Assembly: GCA_035221665.1 (NCBI GenBank)
Contig: CM069131.1
Location: 149,730,001-149,794,000 of the forward strand
Source of the DNA: Okamejei kenojei
Lineage: Eukaryota
Direction of reading: 5' to 3'
DNA length: 64,000 nt
Shown here: piece after piece, positions 6,308 to 64,000 of the stretch
Layout of the letters: each line of letters opens with the position of its first letter
How positions within the stretch are numbered: the stretch's first letter is position 1
Program-made: the position numbers and the translations under genes
Notes under the pieces: generated by a model
Database searches by the model: none
Told to the model about the DNA's origin: nothing
Seen by the model: the letters and a program-made list of their open reading frames with translations, nothing else

Positions 6308-7683
6308 GGGCGGCACAGTGCGCAGCTGTATCGTTCCTGCCTTACAGCGCCAGTGACCCGGGTTCGATCCTGACTATCGGTGCTGTCTGTATGAAGTTTG
6401 TAAGTTCTCCCTGAGACCGCTTGGGTTTTCTCCGTGTGCTCCGGTATCCTCCCACATTCCAAAGACATACAGGTTTGCACGTTAAATACCTGTGGTGAAG
6501 ATTGTAAATTGTCCCTAGTGTGTAGAAACATAGAAATTAGGTGCAGGAGTAGGCCATTCAGCCCGTCGAGCCTGCACCGCCATGCAATATGATCATGGCT
6601 GATCATCCAACTCAGTATCCCGTACCTGCCTTCTCTCCATACCCCCTGATCCCCTTAGCCACAAGGGCCACATCTAACTCCCTCTTAAATACAGCCAATG
6701 AACTGGCCTCAACTACCCTCTGTGGCACAGAGTTCCAGAGACTCACCACTCACCGTGTGAAAAAAGTCTTTCTCATCTCGGTCTTAAAGGATTTCCCCCT
6801 TATCCTTAAGCTGTGACCCCTTGTCCTGGACTTCCCCAACATCGGGAACAATCTTCCTGCATCTAGCCTGTCCAACCCCTTAAGAATTTTGTAAGTTTCT
6901 ATAAGATCCCCTCTCAATCTCCTATATTCTAGAGAGTATAAACCAAGTCTATCCAGTCTTTCTTCATAAGACAGTCCTGACATCCCAGGAATCAGTCTGG
7001 TGAACCTTCTCTGCACTCCCTCTATGGCAGTAATGTCCTTCCTCAGATTTGGAGACCAGAACTGTACGCAATACTCCATGTGTGGTCTCACCAAGATCCT
7101 ATATAACTGAAGTAGAACCTCCCTGCTCCTATACTCAAATCCTTTTGCTATGAAAGCTAACATACCATTCGCTTTCTTCACTGCCTGTTGCACCTGCATG
7201 CCTACTTTCAATGAATGGTGTACCATGACACCCAGGTCTCGCTGCATCTCCCATTCCCTAATCGGCCACCATTTAGATAATAGCCTGCTTTCCTGTTTTT
7301 GCCACCAAAGTGGATAACCTCACATTTATCCACATTATACTGCATCTGCCAAACATTTGCCCACTCACCCAGCCTATCCAAGTCACCGTGCAGTCTCCTA
7401 GCATTCTCCTCACTGCTAACACTGCCCACCAGCTTAGTGTCATCTGCAAACTTGGAGATATTGCCTTCAATTCCCTCATCCAGATCATTAATATATATTG
7501 TAAATAGCTGTGGTCCCAGCACTGAGCCTTGCGGTTCCCTACTAGTCACTGCCTGCCATTGTGAAAAGGACCTGTTTACTCCTATTCTTTGCTTCCTGTT
7601 TGCCAGATAGTGTTGGTGTACAGGGATCGAGGTTTGGCGTGAACGGTGGGCTGAAGGGCCCGCTTCCATTCTGTGTCTCTATC
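6308..7683 (+). mobile_element. HE1 V-SINE split by a CR1 (pieces 6308-6525 and 7606-7683)
   Basis: GGGCGGCACAGTG head, B-box GGTTCGATCC, V-domain; TGTAG|GATAG rejoins when the CR1 is removed. Confidence 0.9.
6523..7605 (-). mobile_element. Young CR1 LINE, 5'-truncated, RT C-terminal half
   Basis: ORFs 7208-7669 and 6750-7247 (PQGSVLGP, FADD, RRLRGDLIE); TAGAAACA tail repeats. Confidence 0.95.
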
Positions 7684-11202: not shown

Positions 11203-11815
11203 CAATAGTCAGGTGAAACACACTTAAGCCACTGAGTTGCATTAAAAAGTGCTATGTAAAGCCAAATCATTGTTGATACCGAGTACAACATCAACCAGAT
11301 ATAATCAGCATGCTCCAACAACACCAGGGGAAAGATCCCAGTTATTTTTTGTCCCTAAGAAAGCAAAACGTTTTAAAATAAATCTTCTTGAAAAGCTTTC
11401 TTGCAATCTTCACATCAGCTTGCTGGTATGCAGCGATGGAACAGGTCAAGATTCAAACTGTCTGAAAATCTATAATTCCATCTTAGAAAATGTGCATCAA
11501 CATCAAATAACAGAGAAATCACATCACCAGCCCTGAATAACAAGCAAAACACTGCTACTGTTCTACCTCTCTCAATACTTTAATTTAAGAACTTGATGCA
11601 TTTAACTGCACGTCTTTAAATGAAAAAAACAACCCCAGGTCTTAATCATAAAACTACAGAATACATTAAGTGTCCATTGGTCTGCTAAACCACCTATTAG
11701 GACATTGATGCAAGCAGGTTACACAGTTGCATGCTCAGGTGATTTCACAACCCCACAGTGTTTATCAACCAATTTACTGGATTCCTGAAATCACAGGATT
11801 CACACTGGTGCCTTA

Positions 11816-12331
11816 TCAGCCTGTCCACTTAAGCGATTTTTTCTGCGACTGCCGGCGATTGTCATGGTCGTAGCAGGCCACCGAAAAACCAGCGACTGGA
11901 CCCCCCCTACAACAATGTCTACGACAATGTCTACAACAACCTACCACCTAGTCGACGTCAATCTATGGCAAGCTACTGACAACCGGCGACCCAGGACGTC
12001 CACCTATGACCACACCTACGACAACCTACGTCCACCCGCGGTAAGCTACGACAAGGTACCACCCTGCCGGCGACAACTGAAGACAACTTTAGACAACCTA
12101 CATCATCCTGGTGACAACCTGCGACAGCACCTACGTCAGGAGAAGTCAAGCTACGCTCAAGTCAACTATCGCCAAAAAGTTTGAACATTTCAAAAACCAG
12201 CAGCGATCAAAAAAATCCAACGTTTCTTTGGGCAACTGAGGAACAGGCGACACCCCGGCGACCATGTGGTGACAGGTTAGTCGCCTGTCGTCGCCTAAAA
12301 AAAAAAAAATCACCTAAGTGGAACAGGGGCA
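11816..12331. mobile_element. PIF/Harbinger-type MITE
   Basis: TIRs CCTGTCCACTTAAGCGATTTTT / AAAAATCACCTAAGTGGAACAGG; TTA TSD at 11813-11815 and 12332-12334; internal ACGACAACCT-like repeats. Confidence 0.85.
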
Positions 12332-17390: not shown

Positions 17391-19681
17391 GAAAAGAGAA
17401 TACCTTTTTTGGAAAAATGGAAAATGTATTTGAATGTGAAATACACGTTGGGAAGCATTATTTATAATACATTCGAAAAGTGAAGATATGGATATGATAT
17501 TGGATTATTTTTAGTTAGTTTTACATTAAAATGAGTTGAAGGAACTTTTTTTAAATGAAGGTAAGGTACCGTCAATGTAGGTCTTTTATTACTTTTAGTT
17601 CAGTCGAAGAATTGATTCCCCCTCCCTCTGATCTACAACTCGGGTTAGTGTCTGTCTATAACAAGGTCTTATTCCCAATGTCACATTTAATCTCATTCAC
17701 TGTCAGATAGGCTTGACATTTTCAGATTAAGTGTTGTGGGTGAGGAATTGAAATTTTAGTGAGCTATATCTAAATATATTTCTGTATTATATATAGAAAG
17801 AAAAGCCTGCAACATATAAACATTCATAAACACTGCGAACATCTCCATGACAATTGATGGTACAATCAACTGTCACATCTGCTTGTGCTTGACAATGATG
17901 GGGAAAGATGGAGAATTTATGAGGCAAAAATCACCTACATACACGTCCCTATTTTGCATAAATCTGAAATATCAGCCTCCAACTTGCTCCAATAGTGTTA
18001 GGACAATTTCATAAATATTATGACAGGAATATATCACATTCAGAGAGATATGAATGTCCCTTATGAAAATAAATGACAAAAAAAAAAAAAAAAAAATCAG
18101 GTCATAAATCAACAACAAATGCTTCTTTTTTTCAAATAAAAACAATCCCTTGATAGGAGACCCTTTGTCATGAAAAATTTTCCTCACATTCAAATTATAT
18201 AAAGGTATTTTGGTTTTACTTTGACATTTTCCGCTAATTAGTATGCCATGAACACTCCAGTCCCCAGACAACTGAAACCAGCTGTGCACCAGACTAGGTT
18301 ACTCTAGTCAGCGTGATTATCTGCTGCTAAATTTATAAGCCTTATCAAAGAAAGTGAAAAATCCCCTAAAGTCACTTCAAGTGCGAGTTAAGTGCTTTTC
18401 AAAGGCAAACAAATTTCTCTCCGTAAATAGGCTTTATGTGTAGCCAAGGCATTTAATTGGTGTCAGTACTTTCTTTTGCTTTGTTTCCCCTTCCTGTCTA
18501 AACAGCCCTATGATCTGGCTTGCTGGGAAGCGGTGATCTGTGTGCTTTCCCTCCACGTACATTTTGCTCACTCACGTCTCGCCGCTCTCTCGTCAACTGC
18601 TTCAATCTGACAGTTCGCCAATGCTACGGCATTGGGAGCAGGAGGGCTGTGAAGAGCTACGCACTCAACTGCCCCACACTGCGTGTAAAACTGACATGTT
18701 ACACATCCGGCAGCTGGGAGAACATTATGACAAGTATTTGAATAAATCTGCCTTGTTTCCTGTCAATAACTCCATTTACTATTCAATTAGCTCAGCACTG
18801 TTCACTCGGAGGTATCTGTTAGTGTGTTTTAGAGCACTATTCTATTTCGGTCTTGCCATGAAATCTGAAGTTTATTCGCCTTAATCCTGGATGCAGATGT
18901 TTTCGTTCTAAGCAGATTTGTTAGATCAGCAGTGTATAGTGGGATTTTGGCGAGACCTGTTAAAATATGGAGCAGTGAGGGGAGTGGCATTTTTGCACTC
19001 GGGGGGAGTCAAAGAAACATAGAAAATAGGTGCAGGAGGAGGCCATTCGGCCCTACGAGCGAGCACCGCCATTCATTGTGATCATGGCTGATGGTCCGCT
19101 ATCAATAACCCGTGCCTGCCTTCTCCCCATATCCCTCGACTCCACTAGCCCCGAGAGCTCTATCCAACTCTCTCTTAAATCCATCCAGTGATTTGGCCTC
19201 CACTGCCCTCTGTGGCAGGGAATTCCATAAATTCACAACTCTCTGGATAAAAAGTTTTTTTCTCACCTCAGTCTTAAATGACCTCCCCTTTATTCTAAGG
19301 CTGTGGCCCCTGGTTCTGGACTCACCCAACATTGGGAACATTTTTCCTGCATCTAGCTTGTCCAGTCCTTTTATAATTTTATATGTTTCTATAAGATCCC
19401 CCCCTCATCCTTCTAAACTCCAGTGAATACAAGCCTAGTCTTTTTAATCTTTCCTCATATGACAGTCCCGCCATCCCAGGGATCAATCTCGTGAACCTAC
19501 GCTGCACTGCCTCAATCACAAGGACGTCCTTCCTCAAATTATGAGACCAAAACTGTACACAATACTCCAGATGTGGTCTCACCAGAGCCCTATACAACTG
19601 CAGAAGAACATCTTTACTCCTGTACTGAAATCCTCTTGTTGTGAAGGCCAACATTCCATTAGCTTTCTTCACTGCCTGCTG

Positions 19682-20862
19682 TAAGCAACATCTAGATATT
19701 AAAAGATCATCCTTGGTTTCAGATTAATCCAGGAAGGAAAGTTAATGGGGAATAGGAATGCTCAGTGAACTGAAATGGCCTCTCACTAGGTTAAAAATAT
19801 ATGTGGAAAATTGCTTTCTCAAACTTCTGTTTCTCTTTCTCTCTTTAAATCTTGTCCAATTCAACAAGTATGTTATCCACTGCCCATTTAGAACTGAGAT
19901 GAGGAAAAAAAAAACTTTTTCACCCAGAGAGTTGTGAATTTGTGGAATTCCCTGCCACAGAAGGCAGTGGAGGCCAATTCACTGGATGAATTTAAAAGAG
20001 AGTCAAATAGAGCTCTTGGGGCTAGAGGAATCAAGGGGGTTACTGGCTGTGGATGATCAGCCATGATCACAATGAATGGTGGTGCTGGCTCGAAGGGCTG
20101 AATGGCCCCCTCCTGCGCTCGTTTTCTATGTTTAATAAAAGATAGACACAAAATGCTGGAGTCGCACAACGGGTCAGGCAGCATGTCTGGATAGAAGGAT
20201 TGGGTGATGTTTCGGCTCGAGACTCTTCTTCAGATTTATGTTTCGGGTTGAGGCCTTTCTTCAGGCTTTTGAAGAAGCATCTCTCAATGGGGGGGGGGGG
20301 GGGGGGGGGGAGGAGGGCAATTGAAACATACAGAATAGTGAAAGGCTTGGAGAGAGTGGATGTGGAGGGAATGTTTCCACTAGTGGGAGAATCTAGGACT
20401 ATAGGTCATAGCCTCAGAATGAAAGGACGTTCTTTTAGGAAGTAGATGAGGAGAAACGTCTTTAGTCGGAGGGTAGTGAATATGTGGCATTTTTTGCCAC
20501 AGTAGGTTGTGGAGACCAAGACGGTGGATATTTTTAAGGCAGAGATAGATAGATGATTAGTATGGGTGTTGAAGTTTATGGGGAGAAGGCAGGAGAATGG
20601 AATTAGGAGGGAGAGATAGATCAGCCTTGATTGAATGGTGGAGTAGACTTAATGGGCCGCATGGCTTAATTCTACTCCTATCCATTATGACCTCAATAGT
20701 CAGGTGAAACACACTTAAGCCACTGAGTTGCATTAAAAAGTGCTATGTAAAGCCAAATCATTGTTGATACCGAGTACAACATCAACCAGATATAATCAGC
20801 ATGCTCCAACAACACCAGGGGAAAGATCCCAGTTATTTTTTGTCCCTAAGAAAGCAAAACGT
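19682..20862 (+). repeat. 1.2-kb local duplication, inserted copy inside CR1 RT
   Basis: Copy of 10163-11371 flanked on both sides by CR1 RT sequence. Confidence 0.97.
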
Positions 20863-22663
20863 CCAGGTCCCCCTGCAACCTCCTAACATCCTCTTCACAC
20901 TTCACACTGCCACCCAGCTTTGTGTCATCCGCAAACTTGCTAGTGTTGCTCCCAATTCCCTCTTCCAAATCATTAATATATGGTAAACAGTTGCGGCCCC
21001 AACACCGAGCCTTGCGGCACTCCACTCGCCACTGCCTGCCATTCTGAAAAGGACCCGTTCACTCCTACTCTTTGCTTCCGGTCTGCCAACTAATTTTATA
21101 TCCATCTCAACACCCTACCCCCAATACCATGTGCTCTAATTTTATCACCAGTCTCCCGTGCAGGATCTTATCAAAGGCTTTCTGAAAGTTTAGATACACT
21201 ACATTCACGCTTCCCTTCATCCTGAAAAAATTGCAGAAGATTGGTCAAGCATGACTTCCCTTTCATAAATCCATGTTGACTTGGACTAATCCTTTTACTG
21301 CTATCCAAATGCTCCATTATTACCTCTTTAATAATTGACTCCAGCATCTTTCCCACCACCGGTCAGGCTAACTGGTCTGTAATTCCCTGTTTTCTCTCTC
21401 GCTCCTTTCTTGAAAAGTGGGATAACATTAACTATCCTCCAATCCACTGAATTGATCCTGAATCTATTGAACATTGGAAACTGATCCTGAATCTATTGAA
21501 CATTGGAAAATGATCACCAATGCGTCCACTATTTCTAGAGCCACCTCCCTGAGGACCCTGGGATGCAGACCATCAGGCCCAGGGGATTTATCATCCTTCA
21601 GTCCCATTAGCCTACCCAATACTATTTCTCGCCTAATGAAAATTTCTTTCAGTTCCTCTACCCCCTTAGATCTTCTGTCCTCCAGTACATCTGGGAGATT
21701 GTTTGTGTCCTCCTTAGTGAAGACAGATCCAAAGTACCTATTCAACTCTTCTGCCATTTCCTTGTTGCCCATAATTATTTCACCCGTGTCTGCCTTCAAG
21801 GGACCCACATTTGACTTTGCTACTTTTTTTCCCTTAACATATCTAAAGAAACTTTTACTGTCCTTCTTTATATTCCTGGCCAGTTTCCCCTCATACTTCA
21901 TCTTTTCAGCCCGTATTGCCCGTTTTGTTTCCTTCTGTTGGCCTATGAAAGTTTCCCAATCCTCTGGCTTCCGGCTACTCTTTGCTGTGTTATACATCTT
22001 TTCCTTCAGTTTTATTCTATCCCTAACTTCTCTTGTCAGCCACGGTTGCCTCCTACTCCCCTTAGAATCATTCTTCCGTTTTGGAATGAAATTATCCTGC
22101 ATCTTCCGAATTATGCCCCAAAATTCCTGCCATTGCTGTTCCTCCGTCATTCCTGCTAGGATCCCTTTCCAGTCTACTTTGGCCAGCTCCCCTCTCATGC
22201 CTTCATAGTCCCCTTTGTTCAACTGCATCACTGCCACTTCTGATTTAACGTTCTCCTTCTCAAATTGCAGATTAAAACTAATCATATTATGATCACTACC
22301 TCCAAGCGGTTCCTTTACCTCGAGTTCTCTTATCATATCTGGTTCATTGGACAACACTAAATCCAGAATTGCCTTTTCTCTGGTCGGCTCCATTAGAAGC
22401 TGCTCTAAGAATCCATCTCGGAGGCATTCTACAAACTCTCTTTCTTGGGGTCCTGAACCAACCTGATTTTCCCAGTCTACCTGCGTATTGAAATCCCCCA
22501 TCACCACAGTGGCATTATCTTTGTTACATGCCAGTTTTAACTCCTGCTGCAACTTACACCCTACATCCAGGCTACTATTTGGGGGTCTGTAAATAACACC
22601 AATTAGTGTCTTCTTGCCTTTACAATTCCTCAACTCAATCCACAGTGACTCTACCTCATCAGT

Positions 22664-25086
22664 CATATAACCATATAAACCATAAAACAATTACAGCACG
22701 GAAACAGGCCCTCTCGGCCCTTCCAGTCCGTGCCGACCATTTGTTTTCCCCTGGACCCATCTACCTGCACTCAGACCATACCCCTCCATTCCCTTCCCGT
22801 CCATATACCTATCCACTTTACTTTTAAATGTTAAAATCGATCCTGCCTCCACCACTTCTGCTGGAAGCTCATTCCACACAGCCACCACCCTCTGAGTAAA
22901 GAAGTTCCCCCTCATGTTACCCCTAAACCTCCATCCCTTAATTCACATGTCATGCCCTCTTGTTTGAATCTTCCCTACCCTTAATGGGAAAAGCTTATCC
23001 ACGTCAACTCTGTCTATCCCTCTCATCATTTTAAAGACCTCAATCAAGTCCCCCCTTAACCTTCTGCGCTCCAAAGAATAAAGACCTAACTTGTTCAACC
23101 TTTCTCTGTAACATAGTTGCTGGATCCCAGGCAACATTCTAGTAAATCTCCTCTGTACTCTCTCTATTTTGTTGACATCCTTTCTATAATTAGGCGACCA
23201 AAATTGTACACCATACTCCAGAATTGGTCTCGCCAATGCCTTGTACAATTTTAACATTACTTTCCTGCTCCTATATTCAATGCTCTGATTTATAAAGGCC
23301 AGCACACCAAAGGCTTTCTTTACCACCCCATCTACATGCGATTCCACCTTCAGGGAAACTATGGCACAGTTATTCCTAGATCTCTCTGTTCCACAACATT
23401 CCTCAATTCCCTACCATTTACCATGTACGTCCTATTTTGATTTGTCCTGCCAAGATGTAGCACTTCACACTTATCAGCATTAAACTCCATCTGCCATCTT
23501 TCAGCCCACTTTTCCAAATGGCCCAAATCTCTCTGTAGACTTTGAAAATCGACTTCATTATCCACAACACCACCTATCTTAATATCATCTGCATACTTAC
23601 TTATCCAATTTTCCACCCCATCATCCAGATCATTGATGTACATGACAAACAACAGTGGACCCAACACAGATCCTTGAGGCACCCCACTGGTCACCGGCTT
23701 CCAACCTGACAAACAGCCATCCACCATTACTCTCTGACATCTCCCATCAGCCACTGTTGAATCCATCTTGCTACTCCACCATTAACACCCAAAGATTGAA
23801 CCTTCTAAACCAACCTTCCATGGGGAACCTTGTCAAAGGCCTTACTGAAATCCATATAGACAACATCCACTGCTTTACCCTCATCAATTTCCCTAGTTAC
23901 CACTTCAGAAAATTTAAGAAGGTTTGTCAAACATGACCTTCCAGGCACAAATCCATGTTGGCTGTTCCTGATCAGACCCTGTTTATCCAGATGCTTATAT
24001 ATATTATCTCTAAGTATCCTTTCCATTAATTTACCCACCACTGACGTCAAACTAATAGGTCTATAATTGCTAGGTTTATTCTTTGAACCCTTTTTAAACA
24101 ATGGAACAACATACGCAGTACGCCAATCCTCCGGCACTAGTCCCGTTTCTAATGACATTTGAAATATTTCTGTCATAGCTCCTGCTATTTCTACACTAAC
24201 TTCCCTCAATGTCCTAGGGAATATCCTGTCAGGACCTGGAGACTTATCCACTTTTATATTTTTCAAAAGTGTCAGTACTTCCTCCTCTTTGAATCTCATA
24301 GTTTCCATAGCTACGCTACTATTTTTCCTTACTTCACATAGTTCAATATCCTTCTCCTTGGTGAATACCGAAGAAAAGAAATTGTTCAATATCTCCCCCA
24401 TCTCTTTTGGCTCTGCAGATAGCTGTCCTTTCTGTCTCTCTAATGGTCCAATTTTATCTCTCATTATCCTTTTGCTATTAATATAGCTGTAGAAATCCTT
24501 TGGATTTACTTTCACCTTTCTTGCCAAAGCAACCTCATATCTTCTTTTAGCCTTCCTAATTTCTTTCTTAAGATTCTTTTTACGTTCTTTATACTCCTCT
24601 TGCACCTCATTTACTCCATATCTCCTACGATTATTGTAGATATCTCTCTTTTTTCGAAACAAGTGTCCAATTTCCCTTGAAAACCATGGCTCTTTCCAAT
24701 TTTTACTATTTCCTTTCACCCTAAACAGGGACATAAATATTCTGTACTCTTACAATTTCCCCTTTAAATGTTCTCCATTTCTCTTCTACATCCTTCCCAT
24801 AAAACAGAGTGTCCCAATTCACTCCTTTTTAAATCCTTATGCATTCCCTCAAAGTTAGCCTTTCTCCAATCAAAAATCTCCACCCTAGGTCCAGTTCTGA
24901 CTCTCTCCATAATTATATTGAAACTAATGGTATTGTGATCACTGGTCCCGAAGTGCTCACCAACGCATACCTCCGTCACCTGACCTGCCTCATTTTCTAA
25001 CAGGAGGTCCAGCACTGCCCCTTTTCTGGTCGATACCTCTATGTACTGCTGCAAAAAACTATCCTGCACACATTTTACAAACTCCA
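22664..25086 (-). mobile_element. Second-family CR1/HER1 LINE (2.4 kb) nested in the endonuclease of the first
   Basis: ORFs 24764-25087, 23805-24734, 23359-23766, 22943-23347, 22691-22915; CATATAAC tail; host frame AREDIW|TDEVESLW rejoins; CATAT at both junctions. Confidence 0.95.
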
Positions 25087-29243: not shown

Positions 29244-30676
29244 AGTAGAGGTGGTGAACCGCTTCCAGATGCTGGAGGAGGAGAAATGAGGAGGAGGAAG
29301 AGGAAAGGGGAGGAGCTGAGGCGAGGGAAAATGCTGCAGCTCGCTATGAACGGTTCATAGAGGACAACTCTGAAACAATGAAGAGTCTACCCAAAGTGAA
29401 GCGTGTGAGAAGTCGCAACTCCGAGCACCCAGAAGTTGTTGCAGCAGGGAAAGTAGTTGTTGAATGCCAAGAGGCGTACACTAGGAGCAGGGTGGAGCAG
29501 CTCAAGGGGGACCTGACTGACAGGCGGCCAAATCGCAACTGAGGTGTACGACAAACTGAAGGAGGAGGAGGTAGCGAGAATGATAGAGGGAGTAGAGGCA
29601 GCCAACAATGGAAAGAGGTATAGTGAGGCATGCAGGGTCGTGAACAAGATCAGTGGCAGGAAGAAGGCCAAGTCAGGTCAAGTCAACGGGAACTCTCCAG
29701 AGGACCGAATCAACACGTGGTTCACCCACTTCAAGAACCTGCTTGGGTCACCTCCGACTGTCACTGAGGAAGATGAGGAGATCGAGATTGTCCTCATGGA
29801 TGTACAGATTCACGACGGCCCCTTCACCATGGAGGAGCTGTGAAAAGTGAAGACCTCGCTAAAGCAAGGGACGAGTCCAGGCCCCGTCATCATAACCACC
29901 TGCTGGCCGTCCTAACCTTCATAGACTTCAAGAAGGAGTTTGACTCGATTCATCGATGCAAATTGATGAGGATTTTGATGGTGTATGGTATCCCTCCTCG
30001 TCTCCTGGGAGCCATTGTGGACATGCACTTGGGCACTACAGCCAAGGTTGTCACCCTGGATGGCGAGAGCAAAGTGTTCGAGATCCTCACATGGGTCTTC
30101 CAGGGAGACATGCTGGCAGCCTTTCTCTTCGTCATTGTCCTTGATTATGCCATGAAGGAGGCGCTCAAGGAACACGAGGACCTCGGCTTCACAATCACCC
30201 CAAGGCGTTCGAGAAGAATCGGGTCAGCCAACTTGTCAGACATCGACTTTGCTGATGACATCATGCTGCTGCCAGACTAGATTAGGGAGGCACAGGAGCT
30301 GCTCGGCAGGGTCGAGACGGTGGGCCTCCACCTCAATGCCAAGAAGACGGAGTACAAGGCGTTCAATGTTGGTGACCATGAGCCTCTCAAGACCAGTGGC
30401 GGTGCATCGCTCAAGAAAGTGGAGACTACAAGTACCTGGAAGCGAGGATGCAGAACTCGGAGAATGACATCAAGGTCCGGAAAGCGCTCGCATGGAAAGC
30501 CTTCAATAACATGGGGAACATCTGGACGTCTCGGATGTCTAAGGGTCTCAAACTGAGATTCTACCATGCAACTGTAGAGACCATATTATTGTACGGGTGC
30601 GAGGCATGGACCTCTCACTCGAGCACCGTCCACGTCTCTATGGTATCTACACCCAAATGCTCAGAAAAGTTCAAAA

Positions 30677-30827
30677 GAAGGGTCACGACCCGGAACCAGT
30701 CTGAAGAAGGGTCTCGACCCGAAACATCGCCTATTCCTTCTCTCCATAGATGTTGCCTCACCCGATGAGTTTCTCCAGCATTTTTATCTACCTTCGATTT
30801 TCCCAGCATCTGCAGTTCTTTCTTAAA
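30677..30827 (+). mobile_element. Penelope-type element with perfect 15-bp TSD and 1.5 tandem hammerhead motifs
   Basis: CAGAAAAGTTCAAAA at 30662-30676 and 30828-30842; CTGAAGAAGGGTCTCGACCCGAAACATC at 30701-30728. Confidence 0.92.
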
Positions 30828-35700: not shown

Positions 35701-37165
35701 CTAGACTAAGTGGGACCCGTTAGGTCCCATTGTCACACAGGAGACCTGCTCTCCCAATGCAATATTCCACCACTCACGCATTGGCCCCAACTGTGCAGGC
35801 GCGGAAAGTGGAAAAGGGAGTTATTAAAGCTTAAAACGTGAATATCTTTTAAAATATAACAACAATTTTAATGTTAAGGATGAGATTTATTCAGTCCATT
35901 CTTTCTTGTTGCTTCTCTTGTTGTGTTCTGCAACCCGGGGAGGGGGACAGGTTCAGGTGGGAGCTGTTGGGGGCCGGTGATGGGAACGTCCTGCAGCAGG
36001 GCGAGGGGCAGGGCTTCAGGCAGCGGGAGGGCGACACCTTCAGGCGGGGCCTGTCGGGGGCCAGTGGGGGAGCCCTGCTATGGCCTACTGCTGCCATGGC
36101 CCAATGGGGGTGGGGGAAGCATCCTGCAGCCAGGGGATGGGGACTGTAAGGATGCTTCCACCACCCCCATTGGGGACACATGGGGGCTCTCGGGGGCTGT
36201 AAGGGGAAGGGTGGTGGGGGGCTTTCTGGAGGGCTGGTACAGGTGTTGTGAGCCGAAGGAACTGGTTTCCAGGGGGCTGTTACGGATATTGTGGGCCAAA
36301 GGGACTTTTCTTGGGCTAGCACGTGTTGTGCGCTGGAGGGATGGGTTTCCAGAGGCCTAGTACAGACATTGAGGGCCAAATGGACTGCAGCTGGGGACAG
36401 CTTCAGGCGGGGGCCGGCAGGAACATTCTGTAGCCGGGGGAGGGGGACGGCTTCAGGCGGGGGCCGGCAAGCAGAGTCCTGCAGCCGGGGGAGGGGAGGG
36501 GGACGGCTTTAGGCGATGGCCGCTGCGGGGGGTGGGGGCCGGCAAGCAGAGTCCTGCAGCTGGGGACAGCAACGGCTTCAGGTGCGGGCCGTTGGGAGGG
36601 GGTGGGGGAAGCTTCCTGCAGCTGGGGGCAGCTTCCGGCGGGAGCCGGCATGGAGTGTCCTGCAGCCAGGGGAGGTGGGGCAGCGCTGCCATGGCCTACA
36701 GCTGCCGCTGCCTACCCCTGCCATTGCCTGACACTGCTGCTGCGGCCCACCGCTGTCATGGACTACCGCTGGCGTGACCTATTGCTGCCATGGCCAGCAG
36801 CTGCCGCTCCCCACCAGCTTCAAGTGAGGGCCAGTGGGGAGCATATGCAGCTGGGGATGGGGACGGCTTCAGGTGGGGGGGTGGGGGGGGGGGGGGGGGG
36901 AGGGAGCTTCAGGCGGGGACCGTTGGGGTGGGCTGGAGCATCCTGTAACAGGCGTCAGTGACGGCTGCAGGCGGGAAAATTAAAATAGAACAAGACTTAC
37001 CAGTGGAGACGTGATGAAGTGGGAAAAAAAAGATGGCGATCTACTGAATGTACTCTGGAAAGGCACCAACTGCGCAGGCGTGGCTAATGACCCGTCGATT
37101 GCCCTTTATGACACCAATAAAGACGCACACGGGAAACCTCCCCGTACTATGCATGTACCCCTGGA
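35701..37165 (-). mobile_element. Putative non-autonomous Helitron-like element with GC-rich internal repeats
   Basis: Minus strand ends in a TGGGACC/GGTCCCA hairpin, 6 nt, then CTAG|T; the other boundary is uncertain. Confidence 0.5.
35930..36975. repeat. Degenerate GC/G-rich tandem array (~50-bp units)
   Basis: Recurrent GCTTCAGGCGGGG and TCCTGCAGC(C/T)GGGG blocks. Confidence 0.85.
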
Positions 37166-47417: not shown

Positions 47418-50400
47418 TAAAACCAAACTGGTTATCTGTGTAGTTAACAAACTCATTTAATCTATCCAGCAGAATTCTTTCTAGGACCTTTGACAACATG
47501 CTGACTAAAGCTATGGGCCTGTAATTATTTAGGCTGCCTACTTTACCAGCTTTGTCCTTAATGACCGGTACTAACAGAACAGACAACATTGAGTCTGGTA
47601 GCAAGCCATGAATCATAAAGCCAGTAAAACAAATAGCAAGGAGAGGAGCTATCCTCATGCTCGCATACTTAAGATGTTCAGCAGAAATATGATCCAAGCC
47701 ACTTGCTTTGTGGTTGGACAGCTTGTTCATGGCATAGAAACATAGAAATTAGGTGCAGGAGCAGGCCATTCAGCCCTTCGGGCCTGCACCGCCATTCAAT
47801 ATGATCATTGCTGATCATCCAACTCAGTATCCTGTACCTGCCTTCTCTCCATACCCCCTGATCCCTTCAGCCACAAGGGCCACATCCCTCTTAAATATGG
47901 CCAATGAACTCGCCTCAACTACCTTCTGTGGCAGAGAATTCCACAGATTCACCACTCTGTGTGAAAATGATTTTCTCATCTCGGTCCTAAAAGACTTCCC
48001 CCTTATCGTTAAACTGTGACCCCTTGTCCTGGACTTCCCAAAAATCGGGAACAATCTTCCTGCATCTAGCCTGTCCAACCCCTTAAGAATTTTGTAAGTC
48101 TCTATGAGATCACCCCTCAATCTTCTAAATTCCAGCGAGTACAAGCCGAGTCTATCCAGTCTTTCTTCATATGGAAGTCGTGCCATCCCAGGAATCGGTC
48201 TGGTGAACCTTCTCTGTACTACCTCTATGGCACGAATGTCTTTCCTCAGATTAGGAGACCAAAACTGTACGCAATACTCCAGGTGTGGCCTCACCAAGAC
48301 CCTATACAACTGCAGTAGAACCTCCCTGCTCTTGTACTCAAATCCTTTTGCTATGAATGCCAACATACCATTCGCTTTCTTCACAGACTGCTGCACCTGC
48401 ATGCCTACTTTCAATGACTGGTGTACCATGACACCCAGGTCTCGCTGCATCTCCCCTTTTCCTAATCGGTCACCATTCAAATAATAGTCTACCTTCCTGT
48501 TTTTGCCACCAAAGTGGATAACCTCACATTTATCCACATTATACTGCATCTGCCATGCATTTGCCCACTCACCCAGTCTATCCAAGTCATCCTGCAGCCT
48601 CCTAGCATCCTCCTCACAGCTAACACTGCCCCCCAGCTTCGTGTCATCCGCAAACTTCGAGATGTTGCATTTAATTCCCTCGTCCAAATCATTAATATAT
48701 ATTGTAAATAGCTGGGGTCACAGCACTGAGCCTTGCGGCACCCCACTAGTCACTGCCTGCCATCCTGAAAAGGACCCGTTCACTCCTACTCATTGCTTCC
48801 TGTTCTCCAGCCACCGCCAATACCGTGTGCTTTAAGTTTGTATACTAATCTCTTGTGTGGGACTTTGTCGAAAGCCTTCTGAAAGTCAGGATATAACACA
48901 TCCACTGCTTCTCCCTTATCCACTCTGCTAGTTACATCCTCAAATTCAATAAGATTCGTCAGATATGATTTACCTTTCGTAAATCCATGCTGACTTTGTC
49001 CAATGATTTCACCACTTTCCAAATGCGCTGCTATCCCATCTTTAATAACTGACTCTAGCAGTTTCCCCACTACTGATGTTAGACTAACTAGTCTGTAATT
49101 CCCCGTTTTCTCTCTCCCTCCCTTTTTAAAAAGTATGGGTTACATTAGCTACCCTCCAATCCTCAGGAACTACTCCAGAATCTAAAGAGTTTTGAAAAAT
49201 TATCACTAAGGCATCTGCTATTTCTGGGGCTACTTCCTTAATGCAGCCTACTTCCTGGGATGCAACCTATCTGGCCCTGGGGATTTATCGGCCTTTAATC
49301 CATTCAATTTACCTAACACCACTTTCCGGCTAACCTGGATTTCACTCAGTTCCTCCATCTCATTTGACCCGCGATCCCCTGCTATTTCCGGCAAATTATT
49401 TATGTCTTCCTTAGTGAAGACAGAACCAAAGCAGTTATTCAATTGGTCTCCCATGTCCTTGCTCCCCATGATCAATTCACCCGTTTCTGACTGCAAGGGA
49501 CCTACATTTGTTTTAACTAATCTTTTTCGCTTCGCATATCCATAAAAGCTTTTGCAGTCAGTTTTTATGTTTCCTGCCAGTTTTCTTTCATTAATCCATT
49601 TTCCCTTTCCTAATGAAGCCCTTTGTCCTCCTCTGTTGGTCTCTGAATTTCTCCCAGTCCCCTAGTAGGCTGCTTTTTCTGGCTAATTTGTACGCTTCAT
49701 CTTTTGCTTTGATACTTTCCCTGATTTCCCTTGTTATTTACGGATGCGCTACCTTCCCTGATTTATTCTTTTGCCATACTGGGATGAACAATTGTTGTAG
49801 TTCATCCATGCAGTCTTTAAATGCCTTCCATTGCATATCCACCGTCAACCCTTCAAGAATCAATTGCCAGTCCATCTTGGCCAATTCACGTCTCATACCC
49901 TCAAAGTTACCTTTCTTTAAGTTCAGGACCCGTGTTTCTGAATTAACAATGTCACTCTCCATCCTAATGAAGAACTCAACCATATTACGGTCACTCTTGC
50001 CCAAGGGGTCACGTACAACAAGGCTGCTAACTAACCCTTCCTCATTACTCAATACCCAGTCTAGAATAGCCTGCTCTCTCGTTGGTTCCCCTACATGTCG
50101 GTTTAGAAAACTATCCCGCATACATTCCAAGAAATCCTCTTCCTCAGCACCCCTGCCAATTTGATTCACCCAATTTCTAGATTGAAGTCAGCCATTATAA
50201 CAGTTTTACCTTCGTTGTATGCATTTCTAATTTCCTATTTCATGCCATCCCGAACTCCACTACTACTGTTAGGTGGCCTGTACACAACATCCACTAGCCT
50301 TTTCTGCCCCTTAGTGTTTCGCAGCTCCACCCATATCGATTCCACATCCTTCAAGCTAATGTACTTCCTTTCTATTGCATTGCTCATGTGACAAACCCTC

Positions 50401-57208: not shown

Positions 57209-58716
57209 AAGCATATGCAAGATACAGTATTTACAAATACAAATTTACAAATAACCAGTGATAATATTTCTATCCTTATGTGTATAGAAATATTGTGAAA
57301 AACCAATATGCATGTGTTTTCTTAATCAAATTTTCACGATTTACTTCTGAAACATGTTTAACAGGCAGCACTTATAAATCCCTTTTCTTCGAATTTTGTC
57401 TGGCTATTCCAAGTCTTTACACGTTTTAATGTGGATCTGTCTTACTGACGGTGAATTTATGTTCTGCACAATGCACTCTATTCAGATATATTACCCAGTG
57501 AAAAATAGGAATAATCAATCACAGGTCTCAACAAAGGTTGGTTCCTTGCTCTTCCTGCTAGCCAACAATTTGGTAACAAATCCGACAAGTTTTACTTGAA
57601 AAAATATATTTTCTTTCTTTCTCAGATATCAATAATGTTGCTTCACTTTAGTTTAGTTTCGAGATACAGTGTGGAAACAGGTCCTTTAACCTACAAACCT
57701 GCACATATTTGGAATGTGGGAGAAAACACTTTTTCTCATCATTTGGTTTATTTTATCCAATATGTCTTTTTTTTTTTAATTTCCTGGATTACCTTGTGAT
57801 TTCTATGTACACCCAGATGATCTAGACATAGTGCTAACTGAACTACTCAGACAGAAAATAAGTGCAGGAGTGATGGTGTGAATGGCATCCTTTAGTACGG
57901 CAATGATCCAAAAATTCCTTGTTTCGATTCTCTTACCACCACCTTCCAACCCCCAATGCTGTCAACCATGCCACAATTCGACTTGTCATTCTTCCAACTT
58001 CTAACCATATTATTCAATTGATGACAAAACACATAGAGGAACTCAGCAGGTCAGGCAACAGTTGTGAAGGAAATTGACAGGCGACATTTAGGTTCCCCAG
58101 GCTGTTCCTATTTAGAGTTATAGAGTCATATAGCATGGAAACAGCACTTCAGCCCAACTTGCCCATGCAAACCAACATTCCCCATCTACCTGCATTTGGC
58201 CAATATCTTTCTTAACCTATCCTATCCATGTATCTGTCCAAATGCATTTTTAAAACATTGTGATAGTACCGGCCACAACTACTTCCTCTGACAGCTCATT
58301 CTATATATTTACCACCCTTTAAAAAAAGTTGCCACAGGTTCTTATTAAATCTTTCCCCCCCCTTACCTTAGACCTACGTCCTCTGGTTCTTGATAGCCCT
58401 ACTCTGGGTAAAACACTGTGCATTTACCCTATCTATTCCTCTCATGATCTTGTGTACCTCTATAAGATCATCCTTCAATCCCCTCCCCCGCTCCAAGGAC
58501 TAAAGGCCTGTCCCACTTGGGCGACATTTTCAGCGACAGCCAGAAAAGAGGTTGTCGTGTCGTGGTCAGGTCATGACGCGTGGTGACACATGTAGTGATG
58601 CGTGGTGACGCGCGGTGTCTCCCTGTCGCCCCTGGATTTTGGAATGTTCAAAATGTCTCATCATGTTGTGCGCCCTGTCACACGTTGACGTATGCTGTCC
58701 TGCGGGTGTCGCCCAG

Positions 58717-58740
58717 TTAGGGTTACGGTTATGGTTAGGG
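58717..58740 (+). repeat. Short interstitial telomeric repeat (TTAGGG-like x4)
   Basis: TTAGGG TTACGG TTATGG TTAGGG. Confidence 0.8.
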
Positions 58741-59554
58741 ACCACAGATGGGCTGTAAAATATTCTTCCTTCAATGCATGGATTTTAAACATTAATATAT
58801 TAAAATTAATACATTAAAATCAATTGTGCAAATGAAAAGATGTCTGAGTCGTTCAGTTTTATTTACAGATGTATTTGTCCACTTCCAGATCCAATCACCA
58901 ACTCTTCACTGGGATCGATTCAGTGAGTGTAGACTGAACTTGCCTCTCCCCTCCACCCCCCTCACCCACCCCCCTGCCCCCATCCCTCCTTCTCCACTTC
59001 CCCCCCCCACCCTTCTCCCCCCCTTCTTCCCTGCCCCCTTCTTCGTCCCCTTCTCCCCGCTCCACTCTTCTCCCCCCTTCTCCACTCATCCCCCCTCCCC
59101 TCACATCCCCTTCAACCCATCTCCCCTTCTTCTCCCATTCTCCACCCCCCCCCCCCCCCCCACTTTCCCCGACGCCCCCCATTTGTGGACCCAGCCTGTG
59201 ACAGCTAGGTCCCACTAATAGTACTGCACAAAGGCTACATCATCTGTTTTATTAACATTGGCTATGGGATCAATGCAGACTTTGGGAACAACACCCCCCA
59301 CACCCCCCCCCCCCTCCACCCCCTCGCCTTGCTTCAAAACGGTGGGTATTTAGACTCAGTGGCCGGAGCAGGTGGGTGGCACTGGTACATTGACAACATT
59401 GCCTGTACCCAGTTGAAAAGCCCGCTGCCTCTGGGGATTTAGAGAGACCATTGGAAGAGAGGTCTGCGCTCTGGGACCACTCATGGCCAACAGTTTAGTT
59501 CCCATGAGAAGCAGATAGAACACTGGGGGTTTGTGTCTGGGGCCCCTATGTCAC

Positions 59555-59704
59555 AGTTAGTTCAGAGGTACAGTACCCTTTGGCCCACCAAGTCCGCATC
59601 GCCCAGCGATCCCCGCACACTAACACTATCCCACACACACTGAGGACAATTCCAAGCCTATCAACCTACAAACCTGTTACTCCTTTGGAGTGTGGGAGGA
59701 AACC
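59555..59704 (-). mobile_element. HE1 V-SINE 3' half, truncated at the telomeric repeat
   Basis: CAGCGATCCCCGCACACTAACACTATCC...TTTGGAGTGTGGGAGGAAACC. Confidence 0.85.
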
Positions 59705-59714
59705 CTAACCCTAA

Positions 59715-59850
59715 AGGGGATGTCCCACTACGGCGATCTAATCCGCGAGTGCAGAAGAGTGTCATCGACCTTCAAGCTCGAGGGCACTCGCCTGGAAAAC
59801 CTCGTGCTGGATCGACTGTCAGCGATGAAACTGCGAGCTGGATCAACCAA

Positions 59851-59884
<34 letters not shown>

Positions 59885-60521
59885 CGCAAAGGCGGGGGCC
59901 AGGGAAAGTGGGGGAGCGCTGTTTGAAATTCACACCCGCGATGAAGAGGAAGATAAAAGATGGCTGCACAGTGTACGGTAAGTCCTTTAGAGAGTGCGGG
60001 GGGGGGGGGAGGGAGAGGAGGAGGAGAGAAAGAGAGAAAGAGAGAGAAGGGGAGAGAAGGGGGGAGAAGGCGGTGAGAAGGGGGAGAAGGAGTGGAGACA
60101 CTTTTAAGAAGTCAGACAACGTTTCATAAAGTTTAGCGGGCATTTTACCTACCGGTCGGTTTTCCTTGGTTCTGTAAACAATGAGCCAATTAAAATGCCC
60201 GGTCAGCGAAGGAGATTGCCTACGGCTGCCCTCGACTGCATGTAACTAAATAGCAACCCCACTCCATTCCACTACGAGTTAAAAAGAACCATGCCGACCA
60301 ATCTTTACTCGCGGAAAAATTCTCAACATGCTGAAAAAATTTCTGTGACCTAGCTGAGGCCGCGAGTATCTTTTTTATCTTGCATGTGCCAAGATCATTT
60401 CAGAGCATCAAGGAGAGTTCCAGTGACCTCAATCGGACCTGCTAGGACCACGTGTTGACCCTGCTGCGAGTTTGAGTTGAGGGCAAACTCTTCTAAACTC
60501 ACAGATTAGGTCACAGCCCCT
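59715..60521. mobile_element. PIF/Harbinger-type MITE (807 bp) inserted into a CCCTAA repeat
   Basis: TAA TSD at 59712-59714 and 60522-60524; TIRs AGGGGATGT..CTAATCCGCGAGT..AGAAGAGT and its inverse; internal (CA)n and GA-rich tracts. Confidence 0.88.
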
Positions 60522-60640
60522 TAACCCTAGCCCTAGCCCTAACCCTAACCTGAACCCTAACTCTAACCCTAGCCATAACCCTAGCCCTAGCCCTAGCCCT
60601 AACTCTAGCCCTAGACCTAACCTTAACCCTAACCCTAACC
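60522..60640 (-). repeat. Interstitial telomeric array (CCCTAA/CCCTAG)n, continuous with 59701-59714
   Basis: About 20 degenerate hexamers. Confidence 0.95.
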
Positions 60641-60857
60641 GAACCGGGCATCACCCGCAGGACAGCATACGTCATCGTGTATGTCATACAACTACGGGCG
60701 TCAGTCACTGACGCTTGCAGTCGCCGTAAAAATCGTAAAATGGGCCCTTAAAGTCCCAACCTGCTCAAGCCCTCCCTATCTCAGGCCCTGGCAGCATCCT
60801 CATAAATAATTTCTGCACTTTTGAACTTAACAACCATTTTCCATCATTTTATTCCCT

Positions 60858-60975: not shown

Positions 60976-61611
60976 CTTTATTCAATTAATAAATATTGAA
61001 CTTTCAGCAGAGGACACTAGGCAAACATAGATATAACGAAACAAGAAAAAATGAGAACATTTATAACATTTTTAGGATCATTAACAGTGGCAAACTTTAT
61101 GATTTTGAATTGTGGATGCATAACTGGTACTATATTCATCACAAATAATATCTTCATGCTCATACATCACATTGTTTCCCACCATTTTATTTCCTCCCTT
61201 CTTCAAGCCATTGACTACAGATCTATTACCAATGATTGCTTCCATTAACTCATTTAATTGACAAATAGATGTGTGGGGATCTTAAGAAAAGCATTATCCC
61301 ATTGCAAGACCATGGCATTTATCACAGTAAAGGCCAAACCTTTTGTCATCCAATGCATGACCAGCTGCATCATAAGCAGACAGAAGTCTTTGCTGAAATT
61401 CTTTCCTTTTTTATCTTGCATGTGCCAAGATCATTTCTAGTATCACCTATTGCTCCCTGGTCTGAGATGACAATCTCATCTCCCACTAGCGACTCACTGT
61501 ACATCTTCCTATTCTCCACGATTGAGCTACCTACTGAATAAACACAAATCGACTGGGGACTGGTTCCATCACTCTGGCTCCCACTTGCAGTCGCCAGCTT
61601 CCAGTCATCAC

Positions 61612-62220: not shown

Positions 62221-64000
62221 CAATATTAACCAAAATTTTAGCCCATAGATTAAGTTTAGTGATTCATAAATTAATACACCCTGATCAAACAGGCTTTATT
62301 CCAAAACGTTATTCATATTATAATCTGAGACGATTATTTAACATTTATATACTCAAATAGAATAGCTAATGTAGACCTAGCTGTCATCTCGTTAGATGCT
62401 GAGAAAGCATTTGATCAAGTGAAATGGCCCTATTTATTTTCGGTGATGGAAAGAATTCAACTGGGTGAGAAGTTTTGCACATGGGTTAAGCTTTTATACT
62501 AACCCAACAACTAGAATAATGACAAATCAAATGTTATCAACAAAATTTGATTTATCTAAAGGTTGTAGACAAGGATGCCCGTTATCCCCGCAATTATTCT
62601 CCCTTGATATCGAACCACTAGCAGAAAGTGTTAGAGCACATCCAGAAATATACGGGTATAATACTAAAAATACAGTCAATAAAATCTCTCTATATGCAGA
62701 TGATATATTATTATATATTACAAACCCAGAAATCAGCATTCCAAACTTGTTAAATCTTAAAACTCAATTTGGTTTATTTTCGGGATATAGAATTAATTGG
62801 AATAAAAGTGAGATTATGCCAATAACGAATATTGCAACAGTCACCTTTTAAAATAGCCAATGAAAAATTTAAATATTTAGGAATTTATGTGACCAAGAAA
62901 TATATTTCTTTATTTAAATCAAATTTCATGCCTTTACTTAATAGATTACATAAGAATATTCAATGCTGGAAAACAGTTCTCATTTCAATGCTTGGTAGAA
63001 TTAATGCTATTAAAATGATTTTCCTTCCGCAATTACTATACCTTTTTCAATCAATTCCAATATATCTCCCCAAAAATTATTTTAAAAGGTTGACTCTATT
63101 GTGACAAGTCTTATTTGGGATTGTAAGAATCACAGAATAAGCAAAACACATTTATGCAAACCCAAGACGAATGGAGGATTGCATAAAAATTTCTCACCAA
63201 ATTTCTTATTCTATTTCTGGGCAGTCAATGTCAAAAATATGAATTTTTGGTTGGAAGATATGGATCAACAACCAGACTGGCTAACGATGGAAAAGATTGT
63301 CTGCCTTTTGAAATTGATCTGATTCTGTTAGCTCCCACAAAATTGAATAAAAAAATCTACAGTGAAAATCCAGTAATACATAGTGGTATTCAAATTTGGA
63401 AACAACTAAAAAAGACATAGAAATTGAATAATTTATCACTATCTCTCCCCATTGCAAATAATCCTTCACTTAAACCTTCAGTATTGGATAAAGGTTTTGT
63501 ACAATGGAAAAATTAAGGTATTAAAAAGATGGGACATCTTTATAGAAAAGGTACTTTCCTCTCGTTTCAGAAGTTACAACAGAATTAGGGATCACATTCA
63601 AATAATTTTTTAGATATTTACATCTTAAAGATTATGTTAAATCATTTACACAAGAATACAGAACAAGAGAGCCAGAGATTCTAGATGAATGTTTGAATAA
63701 ACACCCCAATACAGTCAAATTAATATCTTACATTTATAATGCTCTTTTAGATAGTGAGATTCCGTCGACGGAATTATATAGACAAGCATGTGAAAACGAA
63801 TTAGCTCAACCCATAATGAAAGATATTTGGGATGAAAGTCTACAACATATACATCAATGTTCGTTAAATGCCAGACATTCTTTAATACAATTTAAAGTAC
63901 TACATAGATTGCATTATTCTAAAACAAAATTAAATAGAATCTTTCCTAATATCTCTCCTACCTGTGATAAATGTCAATACTCTGCATCTAATTTAACCCA
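62221..64000 (+). mobile_element. L1-clade LINE ORF2 (RT to C-terminal zinc-finger region), frameshifted, runs off the window
   Basis: [58 protein letters not shown]. Confidence 0.93.

Follow-up and report, generated by a model that had tools for sequence, protein, structure and literature searches.

A single insertion in an older repeat

The window, that is, the whole 64-kb stretch of DNA analyzed, appears to be repeat-rich non-coding DNA, and we take the host lineage to be that of a cartilaginous fish. Broken frames at 6750-7678, 21464-24749, 29777-30768, 47824-50187, and 62447-62851 resemble pieces of LINE reverse transcriptase or endonuclease. A long inverted repeat at 19015-20133, with segments of 138 bp (86%) and 97 bp (84%) around 629 bp, may be a fold-back element or, alternatively, a repeat present in two copies of opposite orientation. 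A GC-rich, repeat-like stretch at 35884-36961 has long open frames of low complexity and, at 36393-36496, a tandem unit of 50 bp.

The element described here (58504-60748; 2,245 bp) is flanked by TAA at 58501-58503 and 60749-60751, both on the + strand. It is one insertion into an older repeat, because the window holds a second copy of this host repeat (minus strand, 26476 to 26052), the alignment of which with the left flank stops at the TAA and is taken up again at that TAA in the right flank. The left part of the split repeat (58147-58500) aligns at 72% over 365 columns to the window copy at 26476-26119, and the right part (60752-60810) aligns to the window copy directly past the TAA. We take this host repeat to be of CR1 type. 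The TAA on both sides and the second copy bear out the initial annotation of a single TAA-flanked Harbinger-type insertion whose split repeat rejoins exactly. The structure is real, and it had been misdescribed in part. A 3-bp target duplication, usually TAA, is given for non-autonomous PIF/Harbinger elements in the available part of PMC2836001, and this feature is present here.

A self-search of the window identified a related element at 11815-12331. The left arm of the insertion (58504-58714, + strand), which comprises a terminal repeat at approximately 58504-58540 and a subterminal region, is collinear with one end of this relative (score 85.1, reached by 0 of 300 shuffles). The outer right arm (60681-60748, - strand), the terminal repeat of which is damaged, corresponds to the relative's other end (score 41.6; 0/300 shuffles), while its score against the opposite end was reached by 6/300 shuffles. 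The arms are two different ends of one related element type. Terminal inverted repeats, another PIF/Harbinger feature, are present on both arms as annotated, but the right one is damaged: only 23 of 32 aligned positions are identical, and its core has suffered a deletion. The arms had also been read as mirror images, which they are not: the spacing from terminal repeat to core is 139 bp on the left versus 33 bp on the right, and the score of the outer right arm against the left arm was reached by 14/300 shuffles. The element is not a full palindrome. Its mirrored parts are the terminal repeats and one block, a core plus a telomere-type tract, only.

The relative at 11815-12331 is gene-less and Harbinger-like, with terminal inverted repeats and a target duplication that is not clean. 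Its interior consists of degenerate, one-directional GTAGG/TGTCG repeats and has kept its CpG (32 CpG to 28 GpC). Six GTAGG motifs, all in one direction, begin at the position matching the core, so that G-rich repeat units are a native trait of elements of this kind; GTTAGG occurs 0 times in the relative. The left arm of the insertion is CpG-rich (CpG o/e 0.96). The motif TGACG, with three occurrences in the left arm and two in the right one, is a candidate subterminal motif; a subterminal motif bound by a Myb-like protein in non-autonomous PIF/Harbinger elements is described in the part of PMC9710019 available to us. Folding of three arm stretches gave nothing strong (z of -1.87, 0.48, and -1.89). 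Among the 12 frames scanned in the element, no transposase or Myb-like family, the products of an autonomous partner with which such elements share their ends, was detected, and no gene fragment scored above the Pfam cut-off; one frame had a proline-rich match far below it. Since its right terminal repeat is damaged, the present copy is likely immobile. In the outer element and in a second element nested within it, the right terminal repeat (60714-60748 and 60487-60522, respectively) has lost part of its core, which would likely immobilise each.

Mirrored block, nested element, and interior

The core of the mirrored block measures 35 bp. Its left copy (58680-58714, + strand), which lies inside the stretch collinear with the relative, is likely the original, and its right copy (60646-60680, - strand), identical at 32/35 positions, is likely an inverted duplicate. 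The 39-bp inner inverted repeat first annotated was reproduced at 35/39, and a further alignment gave 37/42. The core makes up a single inverted block with the tract (54/61), and both tracts begin within 5 nt of the equivalent point of this block. The core-bearing stretch of the left arm aligned collinearly with the relative with a score of 60.1 (0/300 shuffles); the core alone matched the relative weakly (2/300 shuffles). From these comparisons, we infer that the block on the right was copied, in inverted form, from the left. Collinearity of the core with the relative is confined to the left arm, so that a single inverted copy would explain the mirrored polarity of the tracts without two telomerase events.

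The left tract (58717-58740, + strand) consists of the four TTAGGG-type units expected from the initial annotation, with 2/24 mismatches (two units with one each). The right CCCTAA tract had been described without mention of a nested element. It is present, with 19 full units at 60525-60638 (tract 60523-60638, - strand) and two innermost units at approximately 59701-59714 (- strand), but the 808-bp nested element splits it, and the innermost units include the left TAA of that element (59712-59714). In both tracts, 5'-TTAGGG-3' is read inward from the terminal repeats, as had been noted. Such repeats are concentrated in the element: 22 of the 26 matches to two units in the window (at most 2 mismatches; whole-window shuffle mean 5.2) and 10/10 starts of 4-unit tracts (at most 1 mismatch per unit) fall within it. 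No 4-unit tract was found in positions 1-57000, and there was none in 30/30 shuffles of that stretch. Both tracts fall within the definition of short interstitial telomeric repeats in the available text of PMC7215372 (at least four units and a mismatch count below one per unit), the left with 2 mismatches in 4 units and the right with 15 in 19; that text places their insertion at double-strand breaks.

The 15 mismatches in the 114 bases of the right tract are not evenly spread among kinds of change, as eight of them, in eight units, are an identical T>C at unit position 1. Independent decay was simulated with five transition biases, 20,000 times for each, and P for a class as large as these eight identical changes was 0.002 or less with all five. 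The recurring T>C points to slippage or a variant template rather than to plain decay, and the right tract presumably grew by slippage or had such a template as its source. Scattered decay from a pure array, a feature of tracts made by break repair, is thus not what the right tract displays, 8/15 of its mismatches being one change. The recurring change makes a telomerase-made seed less likely, although a short seed would fit, as later slippage can explain the variant. The tract may also have originated from the GTAGG-type unit of the family itself. That none of the first four units has the variant is not significant (P 0.12). The divergences of the core (3/35) and of the tract (7/114, counting the other changes) have wide, overlapping intervals that do not resolve the order of events. 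A search for telomerase RNA with Rfam gave 0 matches at the gathering score in the whole window and none at E up to 10 in 58500-59980, where five weak matches far below the cut-off belonged to other families; a fragment of 25-98 bp could escape Rfam.

The nested element (59715-60522; 808 bp) is Harbinger-like and gene-less and lies within a TAA of the right tract. It has TAA on both sides and ends that match at 29/35, with an end-to-end score reached by 0/300 shuffles, and 11 bp are deleted from its right terminal repeat. Since it sits in a TAA of the tract, it was inserted after the tract had formed. Within it, a 32-bp stretch (60370-60401, + strand) is identical (32/32) to 61406-61437, 1,036 bp downstream, with unrelated flanks; this is one of four exact direct duplicates of at least 24 bp within 3 kb in the window. 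It is likely a templated repair insert copied from that downstream site. A younger age of this insert than of the core was considered, and the difference was not significant (p 0.24).

The interior between the tracts (58741-59700; 960 bp) is made of AT-rich, C-rich low-complexity, and unique-looking DNA, followed by the 5' part of a SINE. The ratio of CpG to GpC is 10:28 in the interior, with the C-rich stretches left out, versus 26:22 in the arms (Fisher p=0.015, on small counts); the interior is CpG-poor like the window, whereas the arms are not. By composition, the interior is likely captured host DNA. This agrees with the initial claim that the element holds captured genomic DNA, in that the interior looks host-derived, without a donor in the window: within the 64 kb, none was found apart from the multi-copy SINE. 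A local donor was considered on the basis of a 17/18 inverted match (58841-58858 with 57836-57853) and rejected, as 32/285 control tiles match likewise. The SINE fragment (59556-59703, + strand, start approximate) is 72-76% similar over about 110 columns to the window copies at 483-586 and 8235-8133. We take it to be HE1, the label used in the initial annotation. The fragment tracks five other window copies up to the right tract, where it is cut mid-element with a 3-4 nt overlap, so that the truncation and the fusion to the tract through microhomology were recovered as described. The Helitron-like end proposed within the interior was not: the window contains no other copy of it, and a stable hairpin is lacking (z -0.32).

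Origin of the mirrored tracts and of the interior

The reading that we prefer, with a probability of about 0.5, is that the mirrored block had a single origin, likely in the founder of a family of small elements, and that the interior is a one-off repair insert from host DNA. The element is probably a repair-scarred transposon rather than the outcome of two separate telomerase healings. The sequence itself shows the insertion, into the older repeat and with duplication of TAA, of an element whose arms correspond to the two ends of the related type. The tract would have arisen once, beside the core, from a telomerase-made seed or by slippage from a GTAGG-type unit of the family, and core and tract would then have been copied inversely into the other arm. 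The mirrored block was probably already in the founder of the small-element family. Short tracts are few per genome and head-to-head tracts are rarer, so a window is likelier to hold one if a multi-copy family carries them, and it is from these odds that we infer the family step. Head-to-head G-rich tracts in an inverted repeat may be prone to breakage, and after a break between the tracts, some 960 bp of foreign origin may have been joined in by way of the 3-4 nt overlap. The variant unit, which recurs through the right tract, would have spread by slippage, and a later Harbinger-like element entered a TAA of the tract.

Several lines of evidence argue for this single origin. The two arms correspond to opposite ends of the relative, with scores that none of 300 shuffles reached in either case; the mirror spans core and tract as one block (54/61), with tract starts within 5 nt; and the core lies in the left-arm stretch that is collinear with the relative (60.1; 0/300). 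One change accounts for 8/15 mismatches of the right tract (P of 0.002 or less), and GTAGG repeats are native to the relative. In its low CpG content the interior resembles the window and differs from the arms, and a second repair-type insert (32/32) is present at the same locus. On the other side, the relative in the window is without GTTAGG, and the core alone matches it weakly (2/300). There is no interior donor within 64 kb, and the CpG contrast is one of small counts, with C-rich stretches left out.

Also against it, no second copy with tracts was found in the 64-kb window or in scans of microbial, viral, and metagenomic DNA. Motif scans of metagenomes gave two loci with 22-30 bp in common with the element, read as chance, and those of viral contigs gave 0 matches; those of prokaryote genomes returned 0 matches and, in addition, 3 loci with 20-21 bp in common, again read as chance. 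The family is not expected in these collections, so the blank says little. A search for mis-annotated copies through translated frames of the arms gave none, the one match being an unrelated tandem-repeat protein. In the literature searched, with few subscription papers among it, no title or abstract among the matches listed described TTAGGG tracts inside a family of Harbinger elements or MITEs, and no transposon paper for the terminal motif was evident by title among the matches listed.

The closest alternative, possible although on the unlikely side, is a scar of this locus only: a Harbinger-type element would have broken, received a telomerase tract on one end, and been repaired with an inverted duplicate and a filler, so that no other copy would have tracts. 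The relative at 11815-12331 is indeed without a tract, and there is another templated insert at the locus. Such a scar also has a precedent in horse, where the available text of PMC7215372 describes inverted duplications of 38 and 53 bp with head-to-head stretches, and both tracts fit the working definition given there. In the horse case, however, the interior is inverted local DNA, and here no local donor was found in 64 kb. These events are, moreover, rare per genome, and a break, a tract, a duplication, and a distant capture would all be needed at one site.

An unlikely extension of the family idea would be a vertebrate Harbinger family with a built-in, break-prone, head-to-head telomere center, which seeds interstitial telomeric tracts throughout the genome, captures varied host DNA between them time and again, and offers TAA sites to other Harbinger elements. 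We regard as quite unlikely a Pack-type family, in which built-in mirrored tracts repeatedly capture varied host DNA and the loaded elements move. The anatomy is the same as under the single-origin reading, the interior looks host-like, and Pack-PIF elements are known in maize, as stated in the part of PMC8903248 at hand; yet one copy was seen, its right terminal repeat is damaged, and nothing indicates that the interior moved with the element. The absence of a gene fragment (1/12 frames with a proline-rich Pfam match far below the cut-off) also speaks against it.

The initial annotation had proposed, as one of two possibilities, that telomerase-healed arms were rejoined around a filler, and knew of no described example. 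The inward polarity on which this proposal was built stands, and two independent telomerase additions, one per side of a break, would fit it. The mirrored polarity also follows from inverted copying, and is therefore not evidence for two additions. Independent double healing is weakened by the arms not forming a full palindrome and by the inverted block: an inverted core would have had to exist beforehand, and two breaks would have had to fall no more than 5 nt from the equivalent point. No telomerase-RNA match was obtained (window at the gathering score; 58500-59980 at E up to 10), and the recurring variant would need slippage anyway. We consider two additions very unlikely. As for precedents, both parts of this idea are in print in the portions available of two papers: head-to-head tracts accompanied by short inverted duplications in PMC7215372 and telomerase addition on the second side of a break in PMC8537989, the latter proposed with head-to-head tracts in 3/41 TERC-flanked loci. 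A fusion of two neighboring insertions (a model proposed for plant Pack elements in the accessible text of PMC8903248), a local inversion, or an assembly error is highly improbable, since the two parts of the host repeat fit together exactly at a single TAA, from which it follows that the interior was not resident at the insertion site, the arms are complementary ends of one element type, and the single short local match to the interior is of a common kind (32/285 control tiles).

Relation to described elements and implications

Each ingredient of this element has a precedent, and the combination is a variant. The following comparisons draw on the parts of the cited papers available to us. PMC7215372 gives 229 short interstitial tracts for human and 142 for horse. 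The complex class of horse tracts resembles the present locus in its head-to-head tracts, its unit criteria, and the DNA between the tracts, and the inverted duplication is 38 and 53 bp there and 35-42 bp here. The present tracts differ in lying inside a transposon, in having an interior that is not local inverted DNA, and in the recurring variant of the right tract. The TERC-ITS loci (PMC8537989) are similar in having tracts on both sides with telomerase polarity, and 6/27 of them lie inside transposable elements; here, no telomerase-RNA fragment was detected by Rfam, the sensitivity of which is limited. In its accessible text, the TERC-ITS survey, which covers vertebrates, assigns transposons no role in spreading its loci.

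The element shares with mPing and Harbinger3N_DR (PMC2836001, PMC9710019, in part) the TAA duplication, the terminal inverted repeats, the lack of genes, the repeated subterminal motifs, and nesting into TAA. It departs from them in its tracts in both arms, its host-like interior, and its damaged right terminal repeat. Such elements typically form many uniform, dispersed copies; the elements in the window are related to the present one but not identical with it. With the maize Pack-PIF elements, as far as the available text of PMC8903248 describes them, it has in common Harbinger-type ends around host-looking DNA. Here, in contrast, there is no gene fragment and no donor in the window, one copy was seen, the genome is of vertebrate type, and telomere-type tracts lie at the boundaries.

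The weight of the finding depends on whether the tracts are family-borne. If they are unique to the element at 58504-60748, it would be one more complex repair scar of the kind described in horse, with little wider weight. If they are family-borne, interstitial telomeric repeats would be spread in a vertebrate by a DNA transposon, a mode that the available part of a review (PMC6410037) names only as a possibility. Such a family would also offer many natural replicates in which to ask whether head-to-head tracts are hotspots of breakage and capture.
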